DNA of 64,000 nt from an uncultured Candidatus Saccharibacteria bacterium. Its GTDB lineage: Bacteria; Patescibacteriota; Minisyncoccia; Phycocordibacterales; CAIZLB01. Below, one piece after another: positions 2,245 through 46,405 of the stretch (the first letter of the stretch is position 1; the number at the start of each line of letters is the position of its first letter). The notes under the pieces are model-generated. The model was not told where the DNA came from and did not search any database. It saw only the letters and a program-made list of their open reading frames with translations. Where the stretch lies: positions 143,933 to 207,932 of the forward strand of contig CAYVEK010000001.1 in assembly GCA_964450605.1 (NCBI GenBank), read 5' to 3'. Position numbers and translations under genes: made by a program.

Positions 2245-2290
2245 GCTGTGACAGATTTCGGGTGTGGGATTCGAACCAACCAAACTCGCA
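2245..2290 (-). other. tRNA 3'-end-like fragment (T-arm GGTTCGAATCC plus acceptor 3' strand), no complete tRNA; possible att-site remnant
   Basis: The minus-strand reading ...ggttggttcgaatcccacacccgaaa... has a canonical T-loop TTCGAAT and flanking stem, but no matching 5' acceptor/D/anticodon arms. Confidence 0.4.
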
Positions 2291-2302
2291 ACTACCCACC
2301 AT

Positions 2303-3466
2303 ATGAAGGCAAAAGCCCTTCTCAATACCATTGTGGCGGCCATCCTGGCCGTCTTCGCCCTCTGCATCACCACCCCTGCTTCGGCTACGGAGCCGGTGAA
2401 CAAGTTCACCCTGACCCGGCCTGGTGCTGGCGTCAGTACAGACGTGTTTCTTAGCTTCCTTCCACGGGAAAACCCTTCGAACCCTGCTCTGCAGGGCGAG
2501 ACCTGGGTTACAGCTCGGGATGGCTGGGTCAACATCCTTCGGACCGGCGGTTCTTCCGTCGGTTCTGGGTACACCCTCGCAGCCAAGCGTTCATCACCAG
2601 ACTACAACTGGTTGATCACGTCAAGTTTCCCATCATGGGGCGGGGAACTGGACAGTACGACTCAGTTCGGAAACCGTCATCACTTCGGATTGCGTATTCA
2701 CGCGATTCGCCCCGGGGTGACATTCCGGATGCAGGACGTGACCACAGAGGTCCGGTCCTACATCTATGGTTCATCCGGTTGGGCCGCTGACGGAGTGGTG
2801 AATATCTCCACAAACCTGTCGGTCCTGAACGCTTTCAGGCTCCGGCTTGAAGCAGGGACGGATGGGGTCAATGGGACCAATGATGATCCGGTCGCGACGG
2901 TACAGAGCTCGTCACTCCCATCAACATCGTGCCTCTTCGGAGGTCTCGGTGTTGCCATGGGGGCCTACGGCTCCGGTGATAACTACCAGAAACTGCGCAA
3001 TGTATACAACTATTGCGCAGCAAATCATCTGGTGTTTAAAATTAATGTAAATATCCCGTACACCGAAAACGGCCAACCATTTACCTCGTCCGCATCAGCG
3101 GTCTTCGCTCCGGCGACACAGCAGTGGTCAGACCAGTTGCCGGAAGGTACTGTGATGCCACCACTCAGTCTCTCCATCTCCGAATCAGAACTTCTGTTCG
3201 GTGACAGTGAGAAGGGGCTGTTTCCGGCCACAAACAGTCTGTACGTCGTGGAGAAATCTACTGAACAGCGGTCGTGGACACCGGTCGTTCCAGCAAACTT
3301 CGGCACAGGCCTCCTGACCCCATTCGCTGTCGGGGATTATCTCGCCGGCGCTCCTCGGTATTTCTACAGGGTTCGCCAGCTGATCCCAGCCACCCAGCAA
3401 ACCCTCCGCGGACCGCGGAACAACGTCCCCACCGGACCGCCGATCGGCGACTCTGTGGCACCCTGA
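2303..3466 (+). CDS. Secreted hypothetical protein encoded in a ~58% GC island (likely horizontally acquired)
   Basis: Long ORF with N-terminal signal peptide MKAKALLNTIVAAILAVFALCITTPASA. GC content and codon usage (GC3-rich) differ sharply from flanking genes. No recognisable domain. Confidence 0.6.
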   Translation: MKAKALLNTIVAAILAVFALCITTPASATEPVNKFTLTRPGAGVSTDVFLSFLPRENPSNPALQGETWVTARDGWVNILRTGGSSVGSGYTLAAKRSSPDYNWLITSSFPSWGGELDSTTQFGNRHHFGLRIHAIRPGVTFRMQDVTTEVRSYIYGSSGWAADGVVNISTNLSVLNAFRLRLEAGTDGVNGTNDDPVATVQSSSLPSTSCLFGGLGVAMGAYGSGDNYQKLRNVYNYCAANHLVFKINVNIPYTENGQPFTSSASAVFAPATQQWSDQLPEGTVMPPLSLSISESELLFGDSEKGLFPATNSLYVVEKSTEQRSWTPVVPANFGTGLLTPFAVGDYLAGAPRYFYRVRQLIPATQQTLRGPRNNVPTGPPIGDSVAP

Positions 3467-10702: not shown

Positions 10703-11302
10703 TTATCGGTTTGGTGTAAACCGGAAAATTGCCCGAATCTTTGAAGTAGGCTCAACGGGACGTAATCCTAGTTCGAGCGTTTCCCCAAAGATAGCTTTTT
10801 GAGTTTCTCGGGATATTTTGTCCCGATTGACCCCGTCAGGGCGGATCAGCCACGATCCGCCTTTGCTATCCCACAGTAGTTGCTTGTTCGAGCGCCCTGT
10901 GGGTGACGCGGAGTCTCTGACTGTGAGGAGGAGGATTGCTCCGTCTCCATATACAGTCAGACCCCATACTTTATCCCATGTCGAGGTTTTTGGAGCCCCG
11001 ACTGGGCTTGGTTTCCACAACTCCTCTCCAGAGGAGGTGGACTCTTTTTCTACCCAAGCAGGAACTGTATCCGACTTGGTCGTGGTGCCAGAGGCTGAAG
11101 GCTCTGGGCTTGTGGTCGTGATGGGGTCACGAGGGTTGGGCAGGGCGCCCGCTTCTCGCATACCCTCAGAAGTTTCTCGACGAATGTCTTCGCCGATAGC
11201 TCCTACAACCGTCTCCGCTGCTCCTGTGTAGGGATTGGCGGTTGGTGATGTCAATTTGGTTACTAGTATCACCACTACTAGTAAGCCTATGATGTACTTC
11301 AT
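10703..11302 (-). CDS. Secreted hypothetical protein in a GC-rich island
   Basis: Signal peptide MKYIIGLLVVVILVTKLTSP; Pro/Thr/Ser-rich, no known motif; ~57% GC versus the AT-rich surroundings; 4-bp overlap with the upstream gene (operon). Confidence 0.55.
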   Translation of the reverse strand: MKYIIGLLVVVILVTKLTSPTANPYTGAAETVVGAIGEDIRRETSEGMREAGALPNPRDPITTTSPEPSASGTTTKSDTVPAWVEKESTSSGEELWKPSPVGAPKTSTWDKVWGLTVYGDGAILLLTVRDSASPTGRSNKQLLWDSKGGSWLIRPDGVNRDKISRETQKAIFGETLELGLRPVEPTSKIRAIFRFTPNR

Positions 11303-12543
11303 ATTCTTGTCACAACGACTGGAGGATTGCCACCTCCGCGGTTGTTTCGTTTTTTGCTGTTTTTACCACTGCCACCACTTTGGCGGATATCCAACCCTTT
11401 AAGAGCCCCCTCCTCGACCTGTATAAATCTCAGAAGTTGTTCGTCGCTCATTGTTGGGAATATCCGTCTCGCCTCATCCATCTTCGGCCCCTTGTTGCGG
11501 ATGTTCAAGGTCTCCCTCTGATCATCCAGTGCCTGCTTCTTGAGGGCAAGCATAGCCTCTTCTATCGACGGCGGGTTTTCAACCTTCGTGATTGTGATCG
11601 ACGAAAGCTGATAGCCGCTATCTATGAATCGTTGCTGGATTGTTCCGGTATTCAAGGCCTGGTCTGAAACCCCTTTAAGATTGCCGCGTATTTGAGACAC
11701 GGTAGTCCAGAAGGCGTCGCTGAGGACGACTGTTAGTGCTCCAAGCGCATAGAGGCGCATTTGGTCTGTTGACAGCGGATTAGTTTTTGATTTTTTTGGA
11801 TCGAAACAAACCACCACAACGGTACCAGTTATATGCGCCGGGAACTCACTTCCGTTGGACCCGCACTGTACTACAGCATCAGTTTTGCCAGCCTCTCTTT
11901 CAAGGGGATAGGTTAACTTCTTGCCGTCGACATTTTCCCAGGACATGCCTAAGAAACTCGGAAGCAGTTGGTTTATAGAACCTCCAACTGCTTTATTCAG
12001 AATTGAAAGTCGGCGTCCCAAGAAGGAACCGACCCCGATCGTGTCGATAGGAACGATCTTTTTGTTGAGTATGCACTCCTTGAAGAAGGAGCGAAAAACC
12101 CAGAAAAAGATTATTCCTGCAGTCAGCATCACTGAGAAGAAATAGTACAGTCCTCCTGGAAGGAGAAACAGTACAATCTTCTTTGACAGCCATAAACTGC
12201 TGTTGATGAGTGCTATGTGAAGGCCGGCCGATGCGAGCAGACATCCAATGTTGCTGTGTTGCCCCTTCTTTCTCAGTATTCCGAAGCCTGCACCGATGAG
12301 AATGGTCGCTATAATCCAGGACCATCTCCACATTTCGTCTAGAGCAGCCTGTTCAGGCGATACTCTCGTGCCCAGGTTCTCCGACCTGGGGAATGCTTTT
12401 GAGCCAGAGCTCTGCTGTAATCCTGCAATGGCGTCTCCGAAGAACCACCATACACAGAATATAAGCAGAGCAATGCTCAAGAACCAAAAGACCAAGTTGC
12501 GGATTGCTTTTCCGCGACGACTGGTCGGTCTTAATATGCTCAT
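11299..12543 (-). CDS. Membrane protein with N-terminal TM helices and a C-terminal SPFH/band-7-like region, in a GC-rich island
   Basis: Multiple hydrophobic helices in the first ~160 aa; C-terminal segment resembling stomatin/prohibitin (...ITKVENPPSIEEAMLALKKQALDDQRE...); high GC. Confidence 0.5.
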   Translation of the reverse strand: MSILRPTSRRGKAIRNLVFWFLSIALLIFCVWWFFGDAIAGLQQSSGSKAFPRSENLGTRVSPEQAALDEMWRWSWIIATILIGAGFGILRKKGQHSNIGCLLASAGLHIALINSSLWLSKKIVLFLLPGGLYYFFSVMLTAGIIFFWVFRSFFKECILNKKIVPIDTIGVGSFLGRRLSILNKAVGGSINQLLPSFLGMSWENVDGKKLTYPLEREAGKTDAVVQCGSNGSEFPAHITGTVVVVCFDPKKSKTNPLSTDQMRLYALGALTVVLSDAFWTTVSQIRGNLKGVSDQALNTGTIQQRFIDSGYQLSSITITKVENPPSIEEAMLALKKQALDDQRETLNIRNKGPKMDEARRIFPTMSDEQLLRFIQVEEGALKGLDIRQSGGSGKNSKKRNNRGGGNPPVVVTRI

Positions 12544-24792: not shown

Positions 24793-26691
24793 ATGTGTGG
24801 CATCGCAGGCTTTATAAATTACAAAAAAACAAAAGAAACAGAGCAACTACTTGATCTTGCTCTAAAAAGTATTACCCATAGAGGTCCTGATGACCAAGGT
24901 GTTTTTATACAGCCTGATTTTGTATTTGGGATGAGGCGTTTGTCTATTATAGACATAGCGCACGGTAAACAGCCTATAACAAATGAAGATGACACCATAA
25001 CCGTTGTGTTTAATGGTGAGATATATAATCATCTCGAACTTCGAGCAAAGCTTATAGACAAAGGTCATGTATTTAAAACAAATTCAGATACAGAATGTTT
25101 AGTTCATGGATACGAAGAATGGGGAAAAGAATTGCCCAAAAAACTGCGAGGTATGTTTGCATTTTGTATACATGATGCGAAACAAAAAAAACTATTTATA
25201 GCCAGAGATCAGTTTGGTATAAAACCTTTGTATTATCACATGCAAGACGGACAAGTGCATGGTTTTGCATCTGAGATAAAATCTTTGCTTGTTGATACAA
25301 GCATCTCTCGAGAGATAAATCTGTCTGAGGTTCATGCATATGCTACACTTCAATACGCTCCACGAACAAACACCTTTTTTAAACACATATACAAATTAAA
25401 TCCTGGACACTCACTAACTGTCGATCTGCATACAGAAGAGCATAGTATAGAAAAATACTGGCAGTTTACGTTTGATGATAATCGAATCAAAGATGAAAAT
25501 TATGAAGGTCGAAAAGCACAGATACGAGAAGTTATGGAAGATTCTGTGGCTCATCACATGATAGCTGATGTTCCTGTGGCATCATTTCTTTCAAGTGGAG
25601 TAGATAGTTCTATCATAGCTAGTTTGGCCAAGAAAAATAATTCAAATCTAAAAACATATACTATTGGATTTGGTGAGGATAGATCAGAGACAGCGGATGC
25701 GGCAGAGCATGCAAAGTTTCTAGGTACTGATCATAAAGAAATACAAGTTTCTTTTGATGATTATTTTAATGCTTTGAAAAAATGTGCTTGGCATTTTGAT
25801 GAACCTGTTGCTGATCCTTCTGCTATATCACTCTATCTCATGGCGCGAGAAGTTGCTCGCGATGTAAAAGTTGTCCTATCGGGTGAAGGGGCAGACGAGT
25901 TGTTTGGTGGATACGGTATATATCTTGAACCAAGAAATACGTATATACGACTCGTGCGCTCAGTACCAAAACCTATACGTGATTATGTGTTTAAACCTAT
26001 ATCTGTCTGTGTAGATTTCGTTGCAGATCATATTCCATTTATAAAAAAGATTCCAGGTGTTAGCTTTCTACATCGCTCTCTTATACCGGCACAACATCGA
26101 TATCTCGGTAATGCTTCTATATTTACAGAACGAGAAAAGAAAAGATTATTTAAAAATTATAAATCAGTCAATATGGTTGGAGCACTCGAGCTTGCTGATC
26201 AGGATGTATCCAAGATGTCTGAATCAGAATATATGCAGTATGTAGACATACACAACTGGCTTCGAGGAGATATACTTGCCAAAGCAGACAAGATGACCAT
26301 GGCGCATTCACTAGAGCTTCGAGTGCCGTTTCTCGATGTCGAAGTTGCACGTGTTGCCAGTGGTATTCATGATTCATGGAAGTACATAGAAGGGCGAACA
26401 AAGTATATACTGCGAGATGCATTCAAAGATGTTATGCCTCATAGTACAAACGTACGGCCAAAGCTCGGTTTTCCAACACCGTGGCACACATGGCTACAAC
26501 GTGACGCTGTTATGGTTAAAAAAACCATATTGGATTCAAAGTTTATACAGGATATTTGCAACACTCGAGAGATAGAAAAGTTGTTTACCACAAAAGCTTT
26601 GAAAGATAAATTTGTTGGAAGAAGAATATTTGTTCTCCTCATGCTTGCTTTATGGTATGATGTATATATCGAACATCCAACATATGCATAA
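24793..26691 (+). CDS. asnB: Asparagine synthetase (glutamine-hydrolysing), class II amidotransferase
   Basis: N-terminal MCGIAG (Cys2 nucleophile); PP-loop SGGVDSS (FLSSGVDSSIIASLA). Confidence 0.85.
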   Translation: MCGIAGFINYKKTKETEQLLDLALKSITHRGPDDQGVFIQPDFVFGMRRLSIIDIAHGKQPITNEDDTITVVFNGEIYNHLELRAKLIDKGHVFKTNSDTECLVHGYEEWGKELPKKLRGMFAFCIHDAKQKKLFIARDQFGIKPLYYHMQDGQVHGFASEIKSLLVDTSISREINLSEVHAYATLQYAPRTNTFFKHIYKLNPGHSLTVDLHTEEHSIEKYWQFTFDDNRIKDENYEGRKAQIREVMEDSVAHHMIADVPVASFLSSGVDSSIIASLAKKNNSNLKTYTIGFGEDRSETADAAEHAKFLGTDHKEIQVSFDDYFNALKKCAWHFDEPVADPSAISLYLMAREVARDVKVVLSGEGADELFGGYGIYLEPRNTYIRLVRSVPKPIRDYVFKPISVCVDFVADHIPFIKKIPGVSFLHRSLIPAQHRYLGNASIFTEREKKRLFKNYKSVNMVGALELADQDVSKMSESEYMQYVDIHNWLRGDILAKADKMTMAHSLELRVPFLDVEVARVASGIHDSWKYIEGRTKYILRDAFKDVMPHSTNVRPKLGFPTPWHTWLQRDAVMVKKTILDSKFIQDICNTREIEKLFTTKALKDKFVGRRIFVLLMLALWYDVYIEHPTYA

Positions 26692-26911
26692 ACAAAGATC
26701 TACACATCAAAAAGGATTTTTAGAACTTATTGTGATTGTTCTTGTCGCACTCATTTTGCTTCGGTTTTTAAATATTGATATACAAGCTGTTCTTGCTAAA
26801 GAGTGGGTCCAAGATTTTATTCGATATGTAAAAGATGTACTAGTTCTTGTGTGGCAGGACATGATATCTATTTTTAAAAGTGTGAAAGGAGCTTAGGGGG
26901 AGAGGTATATA

Positions 26912-27206
26912 TAAAAAAAGGTCCCCGGCACCGGACTTCGGTGCGGGGGAATTTCCTTGTGGGGAGAAGGGCTAGCAGTCCCAACCTCTGGGATCTATCC
27001 ACAAAGTCGCCTCTATGGCTGAGGCAACTTTGGCTGCTGTTATGGAAGCAGATACGTCTCCTTGACGTATTAGATCTTTTCCACATAACAGCTTGTAGTG
27101 TTTTTTCCTCCTTCGCCACTTTTTTTCTCTTAGAGTCATGGTGGTGGTTCTGGTCGTTTCGAGAGAAGAGCAGCGGTAAAACGGGATTGTCGTAACGTGC
27201 TTTCTG
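26912..27206 (-). ncRNA. Candidate structured ncRNA (~295 nt, GC-rich, own promoter and terminator); class not identified
   Basis: On the minus strand: TTGCTT-17nt-TATAAT with an extended TG. The 3' end has a hairpin ccccgcacc-gaagtcc-ggtgccggggacc followed by T7. ~55% GC in an AT-rich intergenic context. The 122-aa ORF on this strand starts upstream of the promoter and looks non-protein-like. Confidence 0.4.
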
Positions 27207-27279
27207 TTTAAACATTATACAGCAAAAGGGCGGGGAAAGCAAGTCCCAGCCCTTAAAACCTTGTGTTATAGGACTAAAA

Positions 27280-28020
27280 TTAGTTTTTGTCTATATATTG
27301 TGTGAAGGCATCCACCGGCAAACCTCCTGTTATACGAGTGTGTCCACCTATCATAAATGAAGGGGTTGCTCGTATTCCAAGCTCTACAGCAGCTGCTTTA
27401 TCGGCATCTATCTGTCCTGCATACTGTGGTTTCTTTCCCTCAGCCACAAGCATGTCATAGTTTAGACCTAGATCAGCTGTTAGTTTTTTAAAGAAACCAA
27501 CTCGCTCTGTTTTTCCAAGTGCTGACCATGTTGGCTGTGTTGCAAATACTTGAGTGTGAAGTTTTTCATATGCTTCTTTTGATACACTTTGTGCAGCAAG
27601 AACCATGCGCCCAACTTCTATAGATCCTTCTCCGTGAACAGGGTATATACGTCGTGTGATAGTCAAACGATCTCCATAGGTGGCTAGAAGTTGCTGAGTG
27701 ATCACTTCGCCGTTTGTAGCACATGCTGGACACTCATAATCCATAAACTCAGTTATCTCTATAGGTGTTGAAGAAGCGGTTCGAGGAGCTGTTCCTTTTC
27801 CTGTTCCAACTATTTTTGGATTACCTGCTGGTGCAACTTTATCTTTTGTAAAAGTCAGTCCGCTTTGAATGTATTTTGCATACTGTCCTTCGCCGCCATT
27901 TGAAGCGACATTTGATTTGAAGGCCATAAGTCCTCCAACTATAATAAGCGCTGTAACAGCAAGTATACCAAGTGTTACTTTTGTTTCTGTGCTTACCGCA
28001 CTGCTATTTGTATATGTCAT
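27280..28020 (-). CDS. DsbA-like thiol:disulfide oxidoreductase (membrane-anchored thioredoxin fold)
   Basis: N-terminal TM; CPAC active site in EFMDYECPACA. Confidence 0.75.
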   Translation of the reverse strand: MTYTNSSAVSTETKVTLGILAVTALIIVGGLMAFKSNVASNGGEGQYAKYIQSGLTFTKDKVAPAGNPKIVGTGKGTAPRTASSTPIEITEFMDYECPACATNGEVITQQLLATYGDRLTITRRIYPVHGEGSIEVGRMVLAAQSVSKEAYEKLHTQVFATQPTWSALGKTERVGFFKKLTADLGLNYDMLVAEGKKPQYAGQIDADKAAAVELGIRATPSFMIGGHTRITGGLPVDAFTQYIDKN

Positions 28021-28535: not shown

Positions 28536-28877
28536 ATGAGAACAAGTCGGTATAAAGACGATATAGTAAAAGTGTTTAAAACCGCACATGTTTTGTCTAT
28601 TGCTGATATCTGCAAAAAGATTCCGCAGGCTGATTTTTCAACTATATATAGAAATGTCGAATCCTTGACTAAAGAGGGTATTTTAAAAAAAATAGTGGTA
28701 ACAGAAGATCTCACTGTGTATGAACTTGTTGATGTCAAACATAGTCACGATCATTTTATATGCAATGAATGCGGGGAAGTAGAAGAGGTGCACGTTTCGC
28801 ATAACTTGTTAAAAGGAAAAAAGGGTAAGATTGAAGAGGTGGTACTTCGAGGAACGTGTGGTGATTGTTGTTTATAA
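28536..28877 (+). CDS. Fur-family transcriptional regulator (Fur/Zur/PerR)
   Basis: Winged-helix N-terminal region; HSHDHFICNECG ... CGDCC metal-binding motifs. Confidence 0.8.
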   Translation: MRTSRYKDDIVKVFKTAHVLSIADICKKIPQADFSTIYRNVESLTKEGILKKIVVTEDLTVYELVDVKHSHDHFICNECGEVEEVHVSHNLLKGKKGKIEEVVLRGTCGDCCL

Positions 28878-28987
28878 AAAGCCTTATTTTATAAGGTTTT
28901 TTTCGGTATATGTGGATAACTTTTAATGTGGATAAGTCATATTATGCAAATTACTTGCATAATAGTTTTTCATAGTGTATATTGTGT

Positions 28988-29256
28988 ATGAGGTTGGATG
29001 TTCCGCCTCAATTTCATATGCCCAGATTCACGTTTGCAACCGCGATGCGGCTGCCACTGTTTGTGCGTTCCGGCAAAACTGTACGAAGGCCGAGCTTGGC
29101 CCCCTGCAGCTGTGTCGGTGAATGCACGTGCAGTTCCGGAGGCTGATCTGTAAAGGTCTGCTTCCCGGGATAACTTCTCCCGTTAAAGTCCTTAGCGACG
29201 AGGTTCGCCCACTTAGTTTGCCGTCTTGTATGGTACGCTTTGTGGGTTTTATTTTT
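28988..29256 (+). ncRNA. Candidate structured ncRNA or leader (~270 nt, GC-rich) upstream of parB; class not identified
   Basis: TTGCAT-17nt-TATATT promoter at 28955-28983. ~58% GC body in AT-rich surroundings. 3' hairpin cccac...gtggg followed by TTTTATTTTT. The overlapping 63-aa ORF looks non-protein-like. Confidence 0.35.
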
Positions 29257-29361
29257 GTCTTTTTGTGTAAAATATTAAAGTCATGTTCACGCTCACGGAG
29301 AAATATGTTCTGATGATAAAAGTCATATGCATCATCACAGCTAAAGTGATATTATATACGC

Positions 29362-30357
29362 ATGTCAGCAACGTATTATAGTGATGCTATCTTTTGGATA
29401 GATACAGAAAAAATAAATCCAAATCCATATCAGCCTCGAAAAGAATTTGATCAAGCTGCTCTGCAAGATCTTTCTGAGTCTATACGTATGTATGGACTTC
29501 TTCAGCCTATAACAGTAACTCGAAAAGAACAGATGACCGAAGACGGCGGTCTTGTGGTAACGTACGAGCTCGTATCTGGAGAGCGACGATTGCGAGCTTC
29601 AAAACTTGCAGGACTTGTACAGGTTCCCGCCATCATACGTGCCAAAGAAGAAGATGCTCGAACAAAACTAGAACTTGCTATTATCGAAAACATACAACGA
29701 GAAGATCTAAATGTTATCGATCGAGCTCGAGCTTTTCAGCAGCTATCACAAGAGTTTGGTTTCAAGCATGCGCAGATCGCTGAGAAGATGGGAAAAAGTC
29801 GAGAGTATGTAACAAACAGTATGCGTCTTTTGAACTTGCCAGCTCATATGCTTGATGCGTTAAGTGCTCGACGTATCGTAGAAGGTCATACTCGACCACT
29901 ACTCATGCTCGTGGAAAGACCTGAAGAGCAGGAGGCTTTGTTCCAAGATATATTGCTTCGAAAGTTGAATGTACGAGAAGCAGAGATGATTGCTCGAAAG
30001 ATAGCTAAAGAGCGTGCACGAAAGAAAGAAAAAGATTTAAATCCTGAAATCATCGAATATGAGCACAAGTTTAATGAGATGTTGGGTACACGAGTTCATA
30101 TCGAAACAAAAGAGCAGGGTGGAAAGATTGTGATTGATTACTATGATCTTGTGGATCTAAAAAAACTACTTGAAAAACTTAGTTCCGAAGGTGTTCCGGG
30201 TATGGTCGACTCTACTGTTGGTGCAAATGTGTTAGTAAATGAAGATGGGCAGGAGTTGGTTGTTGATGATACATCAAGTGTGGTCGTAACTGATTCTGAT
30301 CTAGCAAATGATAGCGAGGATCCTGATATGTATAGTGTGATGAAGTTTACTGTCTAA
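29362..30357 (+). CDS. parB: Chromosome partitioning protein ParB/Spo0J with extended acidic C-terminus
   Basis: ParB box LVSGERRLRAS; HTH; KEYVTNSMRLLNLP. Confidence 0.85.
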   Translation: MSATYYSDAIFWIDTEKINPNPYQPRKEFDQAALQDLSESIRMYGLLQPITVTRKEQMTEDGGLVVTYELVSGERRLRASKLAGLVQVPAIIRAKEEDARTKLELAIIENIQREDLNVIDRARAFQQLSQEFGFKHAQIAEKMGKSREYVTNSMRLLNLPAHMLDALSARRIVEGHTRPLLMLVERPEEQEALFQDILLRKLNVREAEMIARKIAKERARKKEKDLNPEIIEYEHKFNEMLGTRVHIETKEQGGKIVIDYYDLVDLKKLLEKLSSEGVPGMVDSTVGANVLVNEDGQELVVDDTSSVVVTDSDLANDSEDPDMYSVMKFTV

Positions 30358-37295: not shown

Positions 37296-37919
37296 TTAGC
37301 GGAGGCTGATTCCGTAAGTGTCGAGAACCTCGAGATAAGCTTCCAAGGCGTAATATTGTCCACCTATGGCTGTCCATTGTGAAGTAAAACGAGTCAATGA
37401 CGGCGGATTGTCTGCCAAGGCACCAATGTTTGGGTACTCCGACCATTCGGAGAGGGTGCCCGGAAGCTTTATTTCCCTGAGCACTTCCTTCTCTTTTGGT
37501 CCCAATGGGTATGCCGTGCCCAAAGTGAGACCCATCCGTGAGAGAATATCTGAAAGCAGGTTGATGCCTTTTCGGCCGAAGTTGCGGTGTCTCAGTAAGC
37601 GGTGTTGAGGCCTCCGCACCAGTGTTCCCAGTGTCGCAGATCTGCATTCTTCACAGAGATTCAGCAGAGACCCCAACAGGCGAGTTGCCCTTTGAGCCTG
37701 TATCTGTTCCTCGAGGAATTCCTTGAGAGGGCGAGAGAGTATCTCATCGAAATCGGTTTCGCCGATCTCGATTCTGCAAGGCGATTTACTGCGGAAATTC
37801 GCCGTAACGACAAGCTCGAAACCTTCGGGGGCGGAAATTCCTTCTTGCTGAAACCAGGTCATCGCGTGAGCGGCGAAGGCGGATTGCTGTTCAGGGGTGA
37901 GTGAGAGGGTGGGTGTCAT
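37296..37919 (-). CDS. Hypothetical protein in a GC-rich island
   Basis: ~57% GC ORF between the terminator and tRNA-Glu; HhH-like segment LLNLCEECRSATLGTLV; no confident domain. Confidence 0.45.
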   Translation of the reverse strand: MTPTLSLTPEQQSAFAAHAMTWFQQEGISAPEGFELVVTANFRSKSPCRIEIGETDFDEILSRPLKEFLEEQIQAQRATRLLGSLLNLCEECRSATLGTLVRRPQHRLLRHRNFGRKGINLLSDILSRMGLTLGTAYPLGPKEKEVLREIKLPGTLSEWSEYPNIGALADNPPSLTRFTSQWTAIGGQYYALEAYLEVLDTYGISLR

Positions 37920-44730: not shown

Positions 44731-46047
44731 TTAGATATAGATCTTCTTGTTTTTCAATCGTATGTTTGTATTCAAGCACCTCATAAATTCTCGCTTCTCA
44801 TCCATTGTCCCTTCGATTAGGATGAACTTGGCATAGTTCCGAATATCAATATCTTTCACCACCACAGTTGTCTTGGCACCAAGTAACATCTGCTCAAACT
44901 TCTTGAATCTTTGCACTTCAGCCGTGATCTTTTCTCTCATAGGCACTGTCTGTATCTCTAAATCGTCCATGAGGTCTTGTAGTTGGACAACAAGGTCTTC
45001 TTCATTGATGAATCCACATGGACAGTCTTGATCTCTCGTTCTTGTACATTTGTAGTATACATATCGGTTCATGTTACCGTTCTTCTGGTGCTTGAACTTT
45101 TCATCTGCCGTAATACCTGATCCACATAGTCCGCAAGTCATAATCTTGGTGAAGGCAAACTCCTTTTGTTGTGATCTTGGCTCGAGTATCTGACTTTTAA
45201 TCTTCTCCTGAACAAGATCAAACAATTCTTTCGTAATTATTGCTTTATGTGATCCGTTATACCAATTACCTGATTCTTTTGGAAACTCAAACCTGCCGTA
45301 GTAAAAGTGATTTTGGAATATTCTATAGAGATTTCCTAGACTTAGGTGGATATTATTCTCAGTCTTAAAGTTTATATCGTGCTTGAGCCATTGATATACC
45401 TTTCGTCCACTCCAACCATCGTAACCAATTTTCTCGAACATCTGCTTGATAATCGGTGCTCGTTCAGGATCTATGATGGATTCGCATTTTTGATCTATTC
45501 TTTTGTACTTTGTGTATCCAGTTGGTGGTTTACATGGCCACAAACCCATTTCAACTCTTGCCCGTAACCCTCGCTTCACGTTAATACTCTTATTGTCGTT
45601 CTCAAGTTTTGCTTGAGAACACAAGATCATCAGTAAGAATTTCTCATTAGGCGAATTAGAAAAAGTTTGTCCGTAGGTTTGTATATGAATTAACTTTCTT
45701 TGATCCATAAGATCAACAACGGCTCCGAGGTCTCCAGCGTTTCTTGAAAGTCTATCGGGTGCCCATGTGAGTATTCCGTTATATACACCTTTCGAAACCT
45801 CATTAAGTAGTTCTTTGAACACTGGTCGTTGTCCAGATTCTTTTGCAGAGTGAGATTCTCGTTTTATATCCACCACATTCAGTTTCAACCTTTCCGCAAT
45901 CGCTGTCATTTCTTTGATCTGAGAATCGATGGACAGGGCTTGCTGTTCATCTGATTCGGTTGATTTTCGGGCATATAGGCAATACTTAATCCTAGTTTCT
46001 GTTATTGATATATTGCTATGAATTTTGCCGATTACATTCGATTCCAT
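44731..46047 (-). CDS. Large serine recombinase (integrase)
   Basis: Catalytic YARKSTESDEQ...SIDSQ and DRLSRN motifs; recombinase domain; Zn-ribbon CGLCGS...C; 438 aa. Confidence 0.8.
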   Translation of the reverse strand: MESNVIGKIHSNISITETRIKYCLYARKSTESDEQQALSIDSQIKEMTAIAERLKLNVVDIKRESHSAKESGQRPVFKELLNEVSKGVYNGILTWAPDRLSRNAGDLGAVVDLMDQRKLIHIQTYGQTFSNSPNEKFLLMILCSQAKLENDNKSINVKRGLRARVEMGLWPCKPPTGYTKYKRIDQKCESIIDPERAPIIKQMFEKIGYDGWSGRKVYQWLKHDINFKTENNIHLSLGNLYRIFQNHFYYGRFEFPKESGNWYNGSHKAIITKELFDLVQEKIKSQILEPRSQQKEFAFTKIMTCGLCGSGITADEKFKHQKNGNMNRYVYYKCTRTRDQDCPCGFINEEDLVVQLQDLMDDLEIQTVPMREKITAEVQRFKKFEQMLLGAKTTVVVKDIDIRNYAKFILIEGTMDEKREFMRCLNTNIRLKNKKIYI

Positions 46048-46405
46048 ATATTAATTAATGACAGACCAGTCAGGGGTGCATAGCTATGCAAAATAGCCGA
46101 AACGTAGCATGGTCGTTTTGGCTATTAGCAAGGCTATATTTTGGCGTTATTATTAATCTAGAATAATAGATATGAAAATGCTATTATTCATTTACAACTA
46201 AATAAGGCGACCTAACCCTATGGAATAAACCCTATAGGTATGGTCATAAAGTCGATCAAGTGTAAAGAACCCGTCATGGGGTTTTGCTTGATCGCCGTAC
46301 TGGGAAACTGGTACGAAGGACTTCGGTCCTTACCCGTGGCGGGCTTTTTGTATACAACAAAATTCTCGCTAGGTTACAAATAATTTAAGCCGATCAAGCA
46401 AAATT

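Follow-up and report, generated by a model that had tools for sequence, protein, structure and literature searches.

A probable unannotated, hypervariable small-protein gene with conserved structured untranslated regions downstream of dsbA in Saccharibacteria

Introduction

Small proteins of about 55 residues are known from two described systems with which the locus reported here can be compared. ComX, from the Bacillus comQXP locus, is made as a precursor of about 55 residues that has no signal peptide, is polymorphic among strains and carries a Trp a few residues from its acidic C-terminus; the end of B. subtilis ComX, ...DPITRQWGD, is taken here as a lead and not as a test. RMF of E. coli (55 residues) is a small, basic, ribosome-associated protein made from a stable, structured and monocistronic mRNA. 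We examined a 64,000-nucleotide (nt) stretch of DNA from an uncultured Candidatus Saccharibacteria bacterium (contig CAYVEK010000001.1, positions 143,933 to 207,932; called "the window" below, and cited by its own numbering), in which a minus-strand unit at 26912-27242, next to dsbA, consists of a promoter, a 5' hairpin and a terminator hairpin with a run of seven T residues (T7).

A sequence-only reading of the window had proposed positions 26912-27206 as an unclassified non-coding RNA (ncRNA), and had set aside the open reading frames (ORFs) on that strand as implausible. We find that the unit is most likely an unannotated, positionally conserved and hypervariable small-protein gene with conserved, structured untranslated regions (UTRs), belonging to an undescribed family. 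As with ComX and RMF, the predicted product is about 55 residues long; the coding part of the locus is replaced between strains by sequences that can barely be aligned with it.

Results

Conserved ends and a probable coding interior downstream of dsbA

Searches anchored on DsbA gave about 35 loci from Candidatus Saccharibacteria and Patescibacteria metagenome-assembled genomes and from metagenomes (5 of the loci were contributed by a DsbA-profile scan of metagenomes), with DsbA proteins 54-100% identical to that of the window. The gene order dsbB-dsbA-gap-small membrane gene-asnB was conserved among the relatives, and the promoter, 5' hairpin and terminator recurred just downstream of dsbB-dsbA in about 20 Saccharibacteria/Patescibacteria contigs. 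The gap between dsbA and the membrane gene measured 300-580 nt in all loci but one (L014; loci of relatives are cited by such numbers where they must be told apart), and each gap except that one held, on the dsbA strand, a promoter, a leader and a terminator, with a hydrophilic ORF (35-115 codons) starting 22-80 nt past the predicted transcript start and ending 30-70 nt before the terminator. By position, the window gene is orthologous to a small ORF (sORF) that stands directly after dsbB-dsbA in many Saccharibacteria/Patescibacteria. When the window gap was used as nhmmer query, only its promoter/leader and terminator ends aligned in relatives, and the DNA between these ends was unalignable even among strains of one species; the search for homologous regions that the sequence-only reading had suggested thereby bore out the ends of the proposed unit and not its interior. 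The allele set compared below comprised 16 independent alleles plus 2 close variants. At L006 (4880-4980) the gap contained a run of N with duplicated promoter/leader sequence on its flanks, probably an artefact of assembly or scaffolding at a hairpin-rich locus.

The interior of the unit holds an ORF of 55 amino acids (aa) (Table 1), and the way it has evolved points to translation. The ORFs were longer than in dinucleotide shuffles, with a combined Fisher p of 1.4e-7 over 14 independent alleles. The window ORF was 40% identical over 53 aa to the L020 ORF (MTVEQKDWRRRRKFWRSQGKTLIRQGDLPLTRKGAQLAMKHSSMVDPDSWKE) and aligned with the C-terminus of the L018 ORF (...RRAIDSTLEFDPQGWEIA), with AI-x-x-TL-x-x-DP-x-GW shared. 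An all-versus-all comparison of the coding sequence (CDS) segments in six frames found similarity in the ORF frame for window-L020 (E 6.6e-11), L005-L027 (3e-7), window-L018 (8e-6) and L001-L013 (3e-5), and no pair below 8e-4 in the other five frames; the database behind these E-values was very small, and tblastn against all the loci gathered gave 1.9e-7 for window-L020. Differences by codon position were 19/12/43 between L027 and L029, with a ratio of nonsynonymous to synonymous divergence (dN/dS) of 0.17, and 6/11/16 between L005 and L030 (dN/dS 0.32), a test limited to close allele pairs, the more distant ones being saturated at synonymous sites.

A C-terminal pattern was kept across otherwise unalignable alleles. 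Asp or Glu stood among the last 3 residues in 15 of the 16 independent alleles (P 9e-7) and Asp was the terminal residue in half of them (8/16, P 2e-6); Trp occurred among the last 5 residues, again in 8/16 (P 4e-5), and in none of the alleles of classes C and D (described below) nor in the short L023 allele. Typical endings were GWDC, GGWD, GQWD, GDWD, RWMDD, SWKE and GWEIA.

Similarity confined to one frame, third-position bias and a dN/dS below 1, together with the unconserved interior, argue that the transcript is an mRNA and not an ncRNA. We consider it highly probable, from these patterns of substitution, that the flagged segment is a monocistronic mRNA whose small protein is translated. 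The sequence-only reading had named clear protein homology of one ORF as what would speak against an ncRNA, and such homology was found for the 55-aa ORF. Its dismissal of the ORFs was thus mistaken for this one, with its frame-specific similarity and dN/dS below 1, and sound for the other: the 122-aa ORF (26874-27242) starts inside the -35 box, crosses the terminator and lies in a frame without similarity between alleles. An 84-aa ORF of the plus (antisense) strand was rejected likewise, its frame showing no similarity between alleles.

No Shine-Dalgarno (SD) sequence precedes the sORF AUG. Only 3 of the 37 window ORFs of at least 200 aa have an SD, and its absence says little about coding either way. 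Many start codons in the window lay 6-10 nt after a -10-like TAnAAT box, which suggests that leaderless mRNAs are widespread in this genome.

Exchange of the coding part between conserved flanks

The window and L001 were 97.2% identical in dsbA at the nucleotide level (synonymous divergence, dS, 0.12), 98% in the small membrane-protein gene, 93% in the promoter and leader and 91% in the 3' UTR and terminator; whereas, their ORFs (55 aa vs 75 aa) could not be aligned, identity stopping abruptly about 22 nt before the AUG and returning about 20 nt after the stop. Similarly, L013 and L029 had dsbA genes 99.7% identical, yet carried alleles of class B and class C, respectively. At least four barely alignable classes are recognised: class A (window, L018 and L020; 52-57 aa), class B (L001 and L013; common RAF..MR and SFLP.K.TP), class C (L027, L029, L005 and L030; common LDP..LEAA..S..R.GD) and class D (L031, L038 and L039; common TW[EQ]..P[FV]..[LI][LI].DA..HER), with several alleles of more distant genomes falling outside A-D. 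The classes do not track the dsbA tree, and the same classes recur across species. For the same genome pairs, dS was 2-3.5 times and dN about 10 times higher in the sORF than in dsbA. Short motifs (RAF, SF[LI]P, DPxxW[DE]) are common to alleles, which are therefore probably strongly diverged homologues and not unrelated genes.

Alleles have been swapped between strains. We infer that the conserved UTRs serve as sites of homologous recombination for the swap, probably once DNA has been taken up; dprA lies in the window, 7 kb away. Selection within a class is, to judge from the substitutions, purifying, and the old classes would appear to be maintained and moved between strains and species. No silent cassette or second copy of any allele or flank was found in the 64-kb window; with no second copy there, and alleles of unequal length (35-115 aa), the target of a diversity-generating retroelement and antigenic variation from silent cassettes were rejected.

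Promoter, leader and terminators

The sequence-only reading had described a minus-strand unit that is transcribed independently, from a promoter of its own to its own terminator, and these signals are present and conserved at the orthologous site in relatives (Table 1). Its TTGCTT-17-TATAAT spacing and its strong hairpin followed by T7 were found as described. The extended -10 element, given there as TGnTATAAT, was not: the TG directly abuts TATAAT (GCTGTATAAT), which is not canonical. Across 13 orthologous loci (C)TTGCTT or TTGATT was kept 17-18 nt upstream of the -10 box, which read TG(C)TGTATAAT or TGGTATAAT; the -10 context of the window was invariant in all close relatives, and the latter form was that of distant ones. 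A consensus scan did not list this promoter, because TTGCTT agrees with TTGACA at just 3/6 positions, and the bulged minus-strand terminator was likewise not listed.

Table 1. Coordinates of the sORF unit and adjoining features in the window.
Feature	Positions	Strand	Remarks
dsbA terminator hairpin (AAGGGCUGGG...CCCCGCCCUUUU)	27224..27254	-	read from the sequence; holds the -35 box of the next promoter
-35 box, TTGCTT	27237..27242	-	read from the sequence
-10 box, TATAAT (perfect)	27214..27219	-	17-nt spacer to TTGCTT; inside the invariant TTGCTGTATAAT
5' UTR, ~68 nt	27140..27207	-	placed from the promoter; start predicted ~7 nt past the -10 box
5'-proximal leader hairpin	27164..27205	-	purine-rich SD-like 5' arm (AGAAAGCA) pairs with pyrimidine-rich 3' arm (UGCUCUUCU)
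C/A-rich unpaired tract before the AUG, without SD	27140..27163	-	unpaired in folds
Small ORF, 55 aa + stop, MTLREKKWRRRKKHYKLLCGKDLIRQGDVSASITAAKVASAIEATLWIDPRGWDC	26972..27139	-	isoelectric point (pI) 10.0; grand average of hydropathy (GRAVY) -0.55
Two long hairpins within the CDS	27036-27092 and 26999-27033 (span 26999..27092)	-	most of the unusual folding energy
3' UTR with clade-conserved motif ...CCC.CAAGGAA...	26950..26971	-	shared by the close clade
Intrinsic terminator: hairpin 26923-26949, CCCCCGCACCG-AAGUC-CGGUGCCGGGG; T7 at 26913-26919	26913..26949	-	sequence, fold, covariation
70-aa single-pass membrane-protein gene (MHKQRSTHQKGFLELIVIVLVALILLRF...)	26684..26896	+	convergent neighbour, outside the unit; overlaps the asnB end

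The leader was 80-93% identical among close relatives, whose CDS could not be aligned. Its hairpin makes up the first ~45 nt of the predicted transcript, and in the close clade has 16 pairs, 2 of them with compensatory changes. The same architecture (AGGAAG...CUUCC, GAUGGA...UCCAUC) was present in 12 of the 13 leaders examined; leaders were folded singly and within the close clade, since the hairpin interiors vary in length across all of them. An unpaired tract of 20-30 nt, C/A-rich in all alleles, precedes the AUG and is presumed to be an SD-independent landing site for ribosomes. In the terminator stem 94.8% of cells were paired and 6/12 pairs had changed on both sides, a covariation score reached by 0/500 shuffles, with the AAGUC loop invariant in 8 sequences. 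Since promoter, leader and terminator are conserved at an orthologous site and the terminator carries compensatory changes, these signals are beyond chance.

The dsbA stop codon is at 27280 (minus strand), and in relatives an equivalent hairpin and T run were found 3' of dsbA. This dsbA terminator hairpin overlaps the sORF promoter, the -35 box lying in its loop and 3' arm, so that dsbA termination and sORF initiation are physically coupled.

Predicted product and neighbouring genes

The proteins of all alleles are hydrophilic (GRAVY -0.36 to -1.29) and mostly basic (pI about 10 in most), without a signal peptide or membrane segment. AlphaFold2, run on a two-sequence alignment, returned a single long helix with a mean predicted local distance difference test score of 72 and a predicted template modelling score of 0.31, which we judged uninformative. 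Sequence profiles from the PDB gave nothing significant against the alleles, and nothing relevant surfaced in a literature search.

The unit is flanked by fur, dsbB, dsbA, the small membrane-protein gene and asnB, within a region (+/-15 kb) of housekeeping genes that include rpsD, rpoA, grpE, dnaK, parB, topA, dprA and serS. It lies between asnB and dsbA, as the sequence-only reading had it, but the conserved 70-aa membrane-protein gene, missing from that account, intervenes; this protein is 55-100% identical in all relatives and has no family match.

Two known kinds of small-peptide gene were tried and rejected. The mRNA of a type I toxin (hok/fst-like) does not agree with alleles that are all hydrophilic, and no convincing antisense promoter was seen. 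For a precursor of a lasso peptide, or other ribosomally synthesized and post-translationally modified peptide, served by AsnB, neither a protease gene nor a B-protein gene is present; both the GATase and the Asn_synthase domain of asnB are complete, and asnB starts MCGIAG and is kept in L014, where the sORF is absent.

Points that weigh against a small-protein gene

Several findings count against the interpretation as a translated gene and are gathered here. Translation of the ORF is judged from sequence evolution only, and single ORFs were barely longer than chance (p 0.005-0.15 in the shuffle test). Common ancestry of all the allele classes is not proven, similarity between classes being weak. 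Gene callers overlooked or mis-framed the ORF. The 55-aa sequence was absent from a collection of 5.8 billion proteins, in which no candidate sharing a word with it was found, and a class-A profile of two sequences recovered from that collection only the L018 protein itself. A full HMMER search of 1.84 billion representatives returned the L018 protein and one tetratricopeptide-repeat protein, the latter match being judged spurious, as it rests on the generic "A..AL.LDP" turn of the repeat. Pfam, NCBIfam, PHROGs and PADLOC gave chance-level matches only, with up to 16 alleles searched. Among the genes within +/-15 kb no candidate partner enzyme was found, and the neighbours offered no clue to function. 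The window CDS is more self-complementary (folding z score -4.2) and richer in GC at third codon positions (GC3 0.40 vs 0.24 in dsbA) than a plain mRNA needs. Finally, at L014 (DsbA 59% identical; 2222-2335) the gap is only about 90 nt, contains no sORF and holds a bidirectional terminator alone, and the gene is therefore dispensable.

RNA folding and alternative explanations

The minus strand of a 304-nt stretch folded with a z score of -4.56 against dinucleotide shuffles and the plus strand with -4.77, so that folding energy alone cannot assign a strand. The CDS itself was strongly structured in the window (z -4.24), L001 (-5.8), L020 (-3.7) and L005 (-3.6), and the mean over alleles was -1.8 vs -0.5 for control CDS segments; GC3 was elevated, at 0.37-0.62 in all alleles but L031 (0.30). 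This strong folding in several alleles keeps alive a dual-function RNA, in which the transcript encodes the protein and also acts structurally, as a protein sponge or a base-pairing regulator, its UTRs and hairpin-rich body mattering in themselves. Such a role would fit the conservation of both UTRs, of the leader hairpin and of the invariant loop in the terminator, which exceeds that of the CDS. Against it, the two long CDS hairpins of the window are not kept in the homologous alleles L018 and L020, and homologous alleles drop each other's hairpins; the CDS was close to unstructured in L018 (-0.4) and in L006, L007 and L011 (between -0.2 and -0.6); the predicted folds have no allele-wide architecture beyond the 5' hairpin and the terminator; and there was no Rfam match. 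The self-complementarity of the CDS may equally have arisen from mRNA stabilisation, or from a recombination hot spot at which gene conversion is GC-biased, and we give a second, structural function of the transcript only a slim chance.

Improbable as well, in our estimate, is a polymorphic signalling or recognition peptide of the ComX type, in which the sORF would encode a precursor with a processed or modified Trp-containing C-terminus and the allele classes would be pherotypes or host-specificity types. The size of class A, the absence of a signal peptide, the strong polymorphism of conspecific strains, common across species, and C-termini of the form DP-x-x-W-[DE] or G-x-W-D would fit such a precursor. 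However, no allele matches the Pfam ComX family; no gene for an isoprenyl transferase, sensor kinase, C39 exporter or radical S-adenosylmethionine enzyme is found beside the ORF or at a distance of up to about 15 kb; the C-terminal Trp is lacking in classes C and D and in the short L023 allele; and the adjacent asnB, retained in L014 without an sORF, has an intact N-terminal Cys.

A pure structured ncRNA, whose ORFs arose by accident in GC-rich, stop-poor sequence, is very unlikely. It would account for the folding of the transcript (z -4.56) from a promoter and terminator of its own, for the marginal significance of each single ORF, and for the ORFs of the opposite strand (84 aa with a GTG start in the window, 55 aa in L020, 90 aa in L027 and 74 aa in L006). 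It does not account for amino-acid similarity confined to one frame, for third-position-biased substitution with dN/dS of 0.17-0.32, or for C-terminal residues kept across unalignable alleles, and the plus strand folds equally well. The lineage-specific structured ncRNA of the sequence-only reading is not supported, given the same frame-specific similarity of the 55-aa ORF and an interior conserved in neither sequence nor structure; a generic structured ncRNA was also rejected, its body having no conserved sequence or fold and covariation being seen only in the leader hairpin and terminator. The Rfam scan which that reading had suggested found no family at the site, 6S RNA included: there was no match at 26912-27206 at the gathering threshold, two chance-level matches at E<=10 (20 and 12 bits vs thresholds of 55 and 40), and none in 15 orthologous loci. 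ARAGORN found no tRNA or tmRNA at the site, and with these scans the earlier exclusion of RNase P, tmRNA and SRP RNA stands.

A decaying foreign remnant, which the sequence-only reading had offered as its other possibility, or a spacer ORF that has no function within an extended 3' region of dsbA, agrees with the atypical GC content (49% over 26912-27206 vs 38% for the whole window, the ~55% of that reading being reached only in 100-150-nt peaks of 54-57%), with the missing sORF of L014 and with rapid turnover, and is most improbable for an element that is held at the same site across genomes with DsbA 54% to 100% identical, has its own conserved promoter behind the dsbA terminator, is under purifying selection within classes and has no similarity to phage, plasmid or viral contigs.

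Other features of the window

A second GC-rich intergenic island at 28985-29262 (plus strand), between fur (28536-28877) and parB (29362-30357), reaches 60% GC and folds with a z score of -4.39. It had no Rfam match even at E<=1; nhmmer found it in relatives (L018 3e-37, L005 7e-34, L030 6e-28, L013 4e-10), and RNAalifold gave 49 pairs, 13 with compensatory changes, including an invariant CGGGA/UCCCG hairpin. As an unclassified structured RNA this island, being conserved at the nucleotide level in relatives, is a stronger candidate than the flagged unit.

The larger GC-rich islands (up to 67% GC) at 2264-3466 (plus), 10703-12543 (minus) and 37296-37919 (minus) are protein-coding. Their products are a 400-aa protein with a hydrophobic N-terminal stretch, signal-peptide-like by eye, 199-aa and 414-aa membrane-anchored proteins and a 207-aa protein; the 199-aa, 414-aa and 207-aa proteins had no Pfam match, the 400-aa protein lying outside that scan. 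These genes are compositionally atypical and possibly acquired or fast-evolving. A LOOT RNA (RF03000; 77 bits, the gathering score being 46) was found at 46209-46331 (plus), a short way downstream of the gene for a large serine recombinase (44734-46047).

Discussion

If the unit is a small-protein gene, it could work as follows. Transcription would begin near 27207 from the sigma-70-type promoter inside the dsbA terminator, and the first part of the transcript would fold into the hairpin with the SD-like purine 5' arm, which, if it acts like known 5' stabiliser hairpins, probably shields the 5' end from decay, tunes translation, or both. The unstructured C/A-rich tract would then offer the AUG at 27139 for SD-independent initiation, apparently the normal course in an SD-poor and largely leaderless-looking genome. 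The product would be a 55-residue basic, hydrophilic protein, probably helical or disordered, ending in DPRGWDC, and the 3' UTR and intrinsic terminator would end the unit. The conserved acidic C-terminal tip, often G-x-W-D, might be a docking motif.

As to function, our suggestions are tentative. Our best guess, though of low probability, is a small protein associated with nucleic acid or the ribosome, or an adaptor, that docks by its acidic, Trp-containing tip. The polymorphism of the alleles suggests a role in recognition or conflict. A more specific proposal, to which we assign a still lower likelihood, is that the locus is a recognition or signalling determinant under balanced trans-species polymorphism, its alleles being exchanged by transformation and defining pherotype-like or host-specificity groups, perhaps with a transcript that acts as RNA as well.

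With this reinterpretation a tempting ncRNA candidate is struck from the list. In SD-poor Patescibacteria genomes, good folding, a high GC content and the lack of an SD do not stop an intergenic unit from being a small-protein gene, overlooked or put in the wrong frame by gene callers. Despite its conserved position and near-consensus promoter, the gene has unrelated alleles in strains whose flanks are 97-99.7% identical. Such a pattern of polymorphism usually marks molecules of recognition, conflict or signalling, and to our knowledge hardly any have been described from Saccharibacteria, which live in dependence on a host and rely on specific recognition of the partner. Should expression and function be confirmed, strain groups could be typed by a compact marker at this locus, which would also open a way to a new function of a small protein.

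The sORF and the precursors of the ComX type are alike in their size of about 55 aa, in lacking a signal peptide and in strain polymorphism with conserved flanks, and both have a Trp near an acidic C-terminus, although half of the sORF alleles are without Trp. Unlike comQXP, the sORF has no family match and no adjacent ComQ or ComP; it is monocistronic and lies downstream of dsbA. The predicted product resembles proteins of the RMF type in its size, its pI of about 10 and its hydrophilic character, and the two kinds of transcript both start at a strong promoter of their own, carry a long and structured 5' UTR and end in a strong terminator; whereas, RMF-type proteins are conserved and the sORF is hypervariable, with nil homology in NCBIfam or Pfam.

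The leader may be compared with 5' stabilisers, i.e., the ompA-type hairpin and the STAB-SD element of B. thuringiensis cryIIIA. The sORF hairpin begins within about 5 nt of the predicted 5' end and, as in STAB-SD, the SD-like tract (AGGAAG/AGAAAG) lies far upstream of the AUG, the element being conserved and the CDS not. Unlike STAB-SD, the tract is itself base-paired and the organism seemingly uses SD sequences little; a stabiliser role for the leader is proposed by analogy. Lastly, the locus differs from strain-polymorphic cassette loci that are kept up by recombination and balancing selection (pherotype, immunity or specificity genes) in having no linked gene for a cognate toxin, receptor or modification, and resembles them in its differing alleles between near-identical flanks and in allele classes that are common across species.

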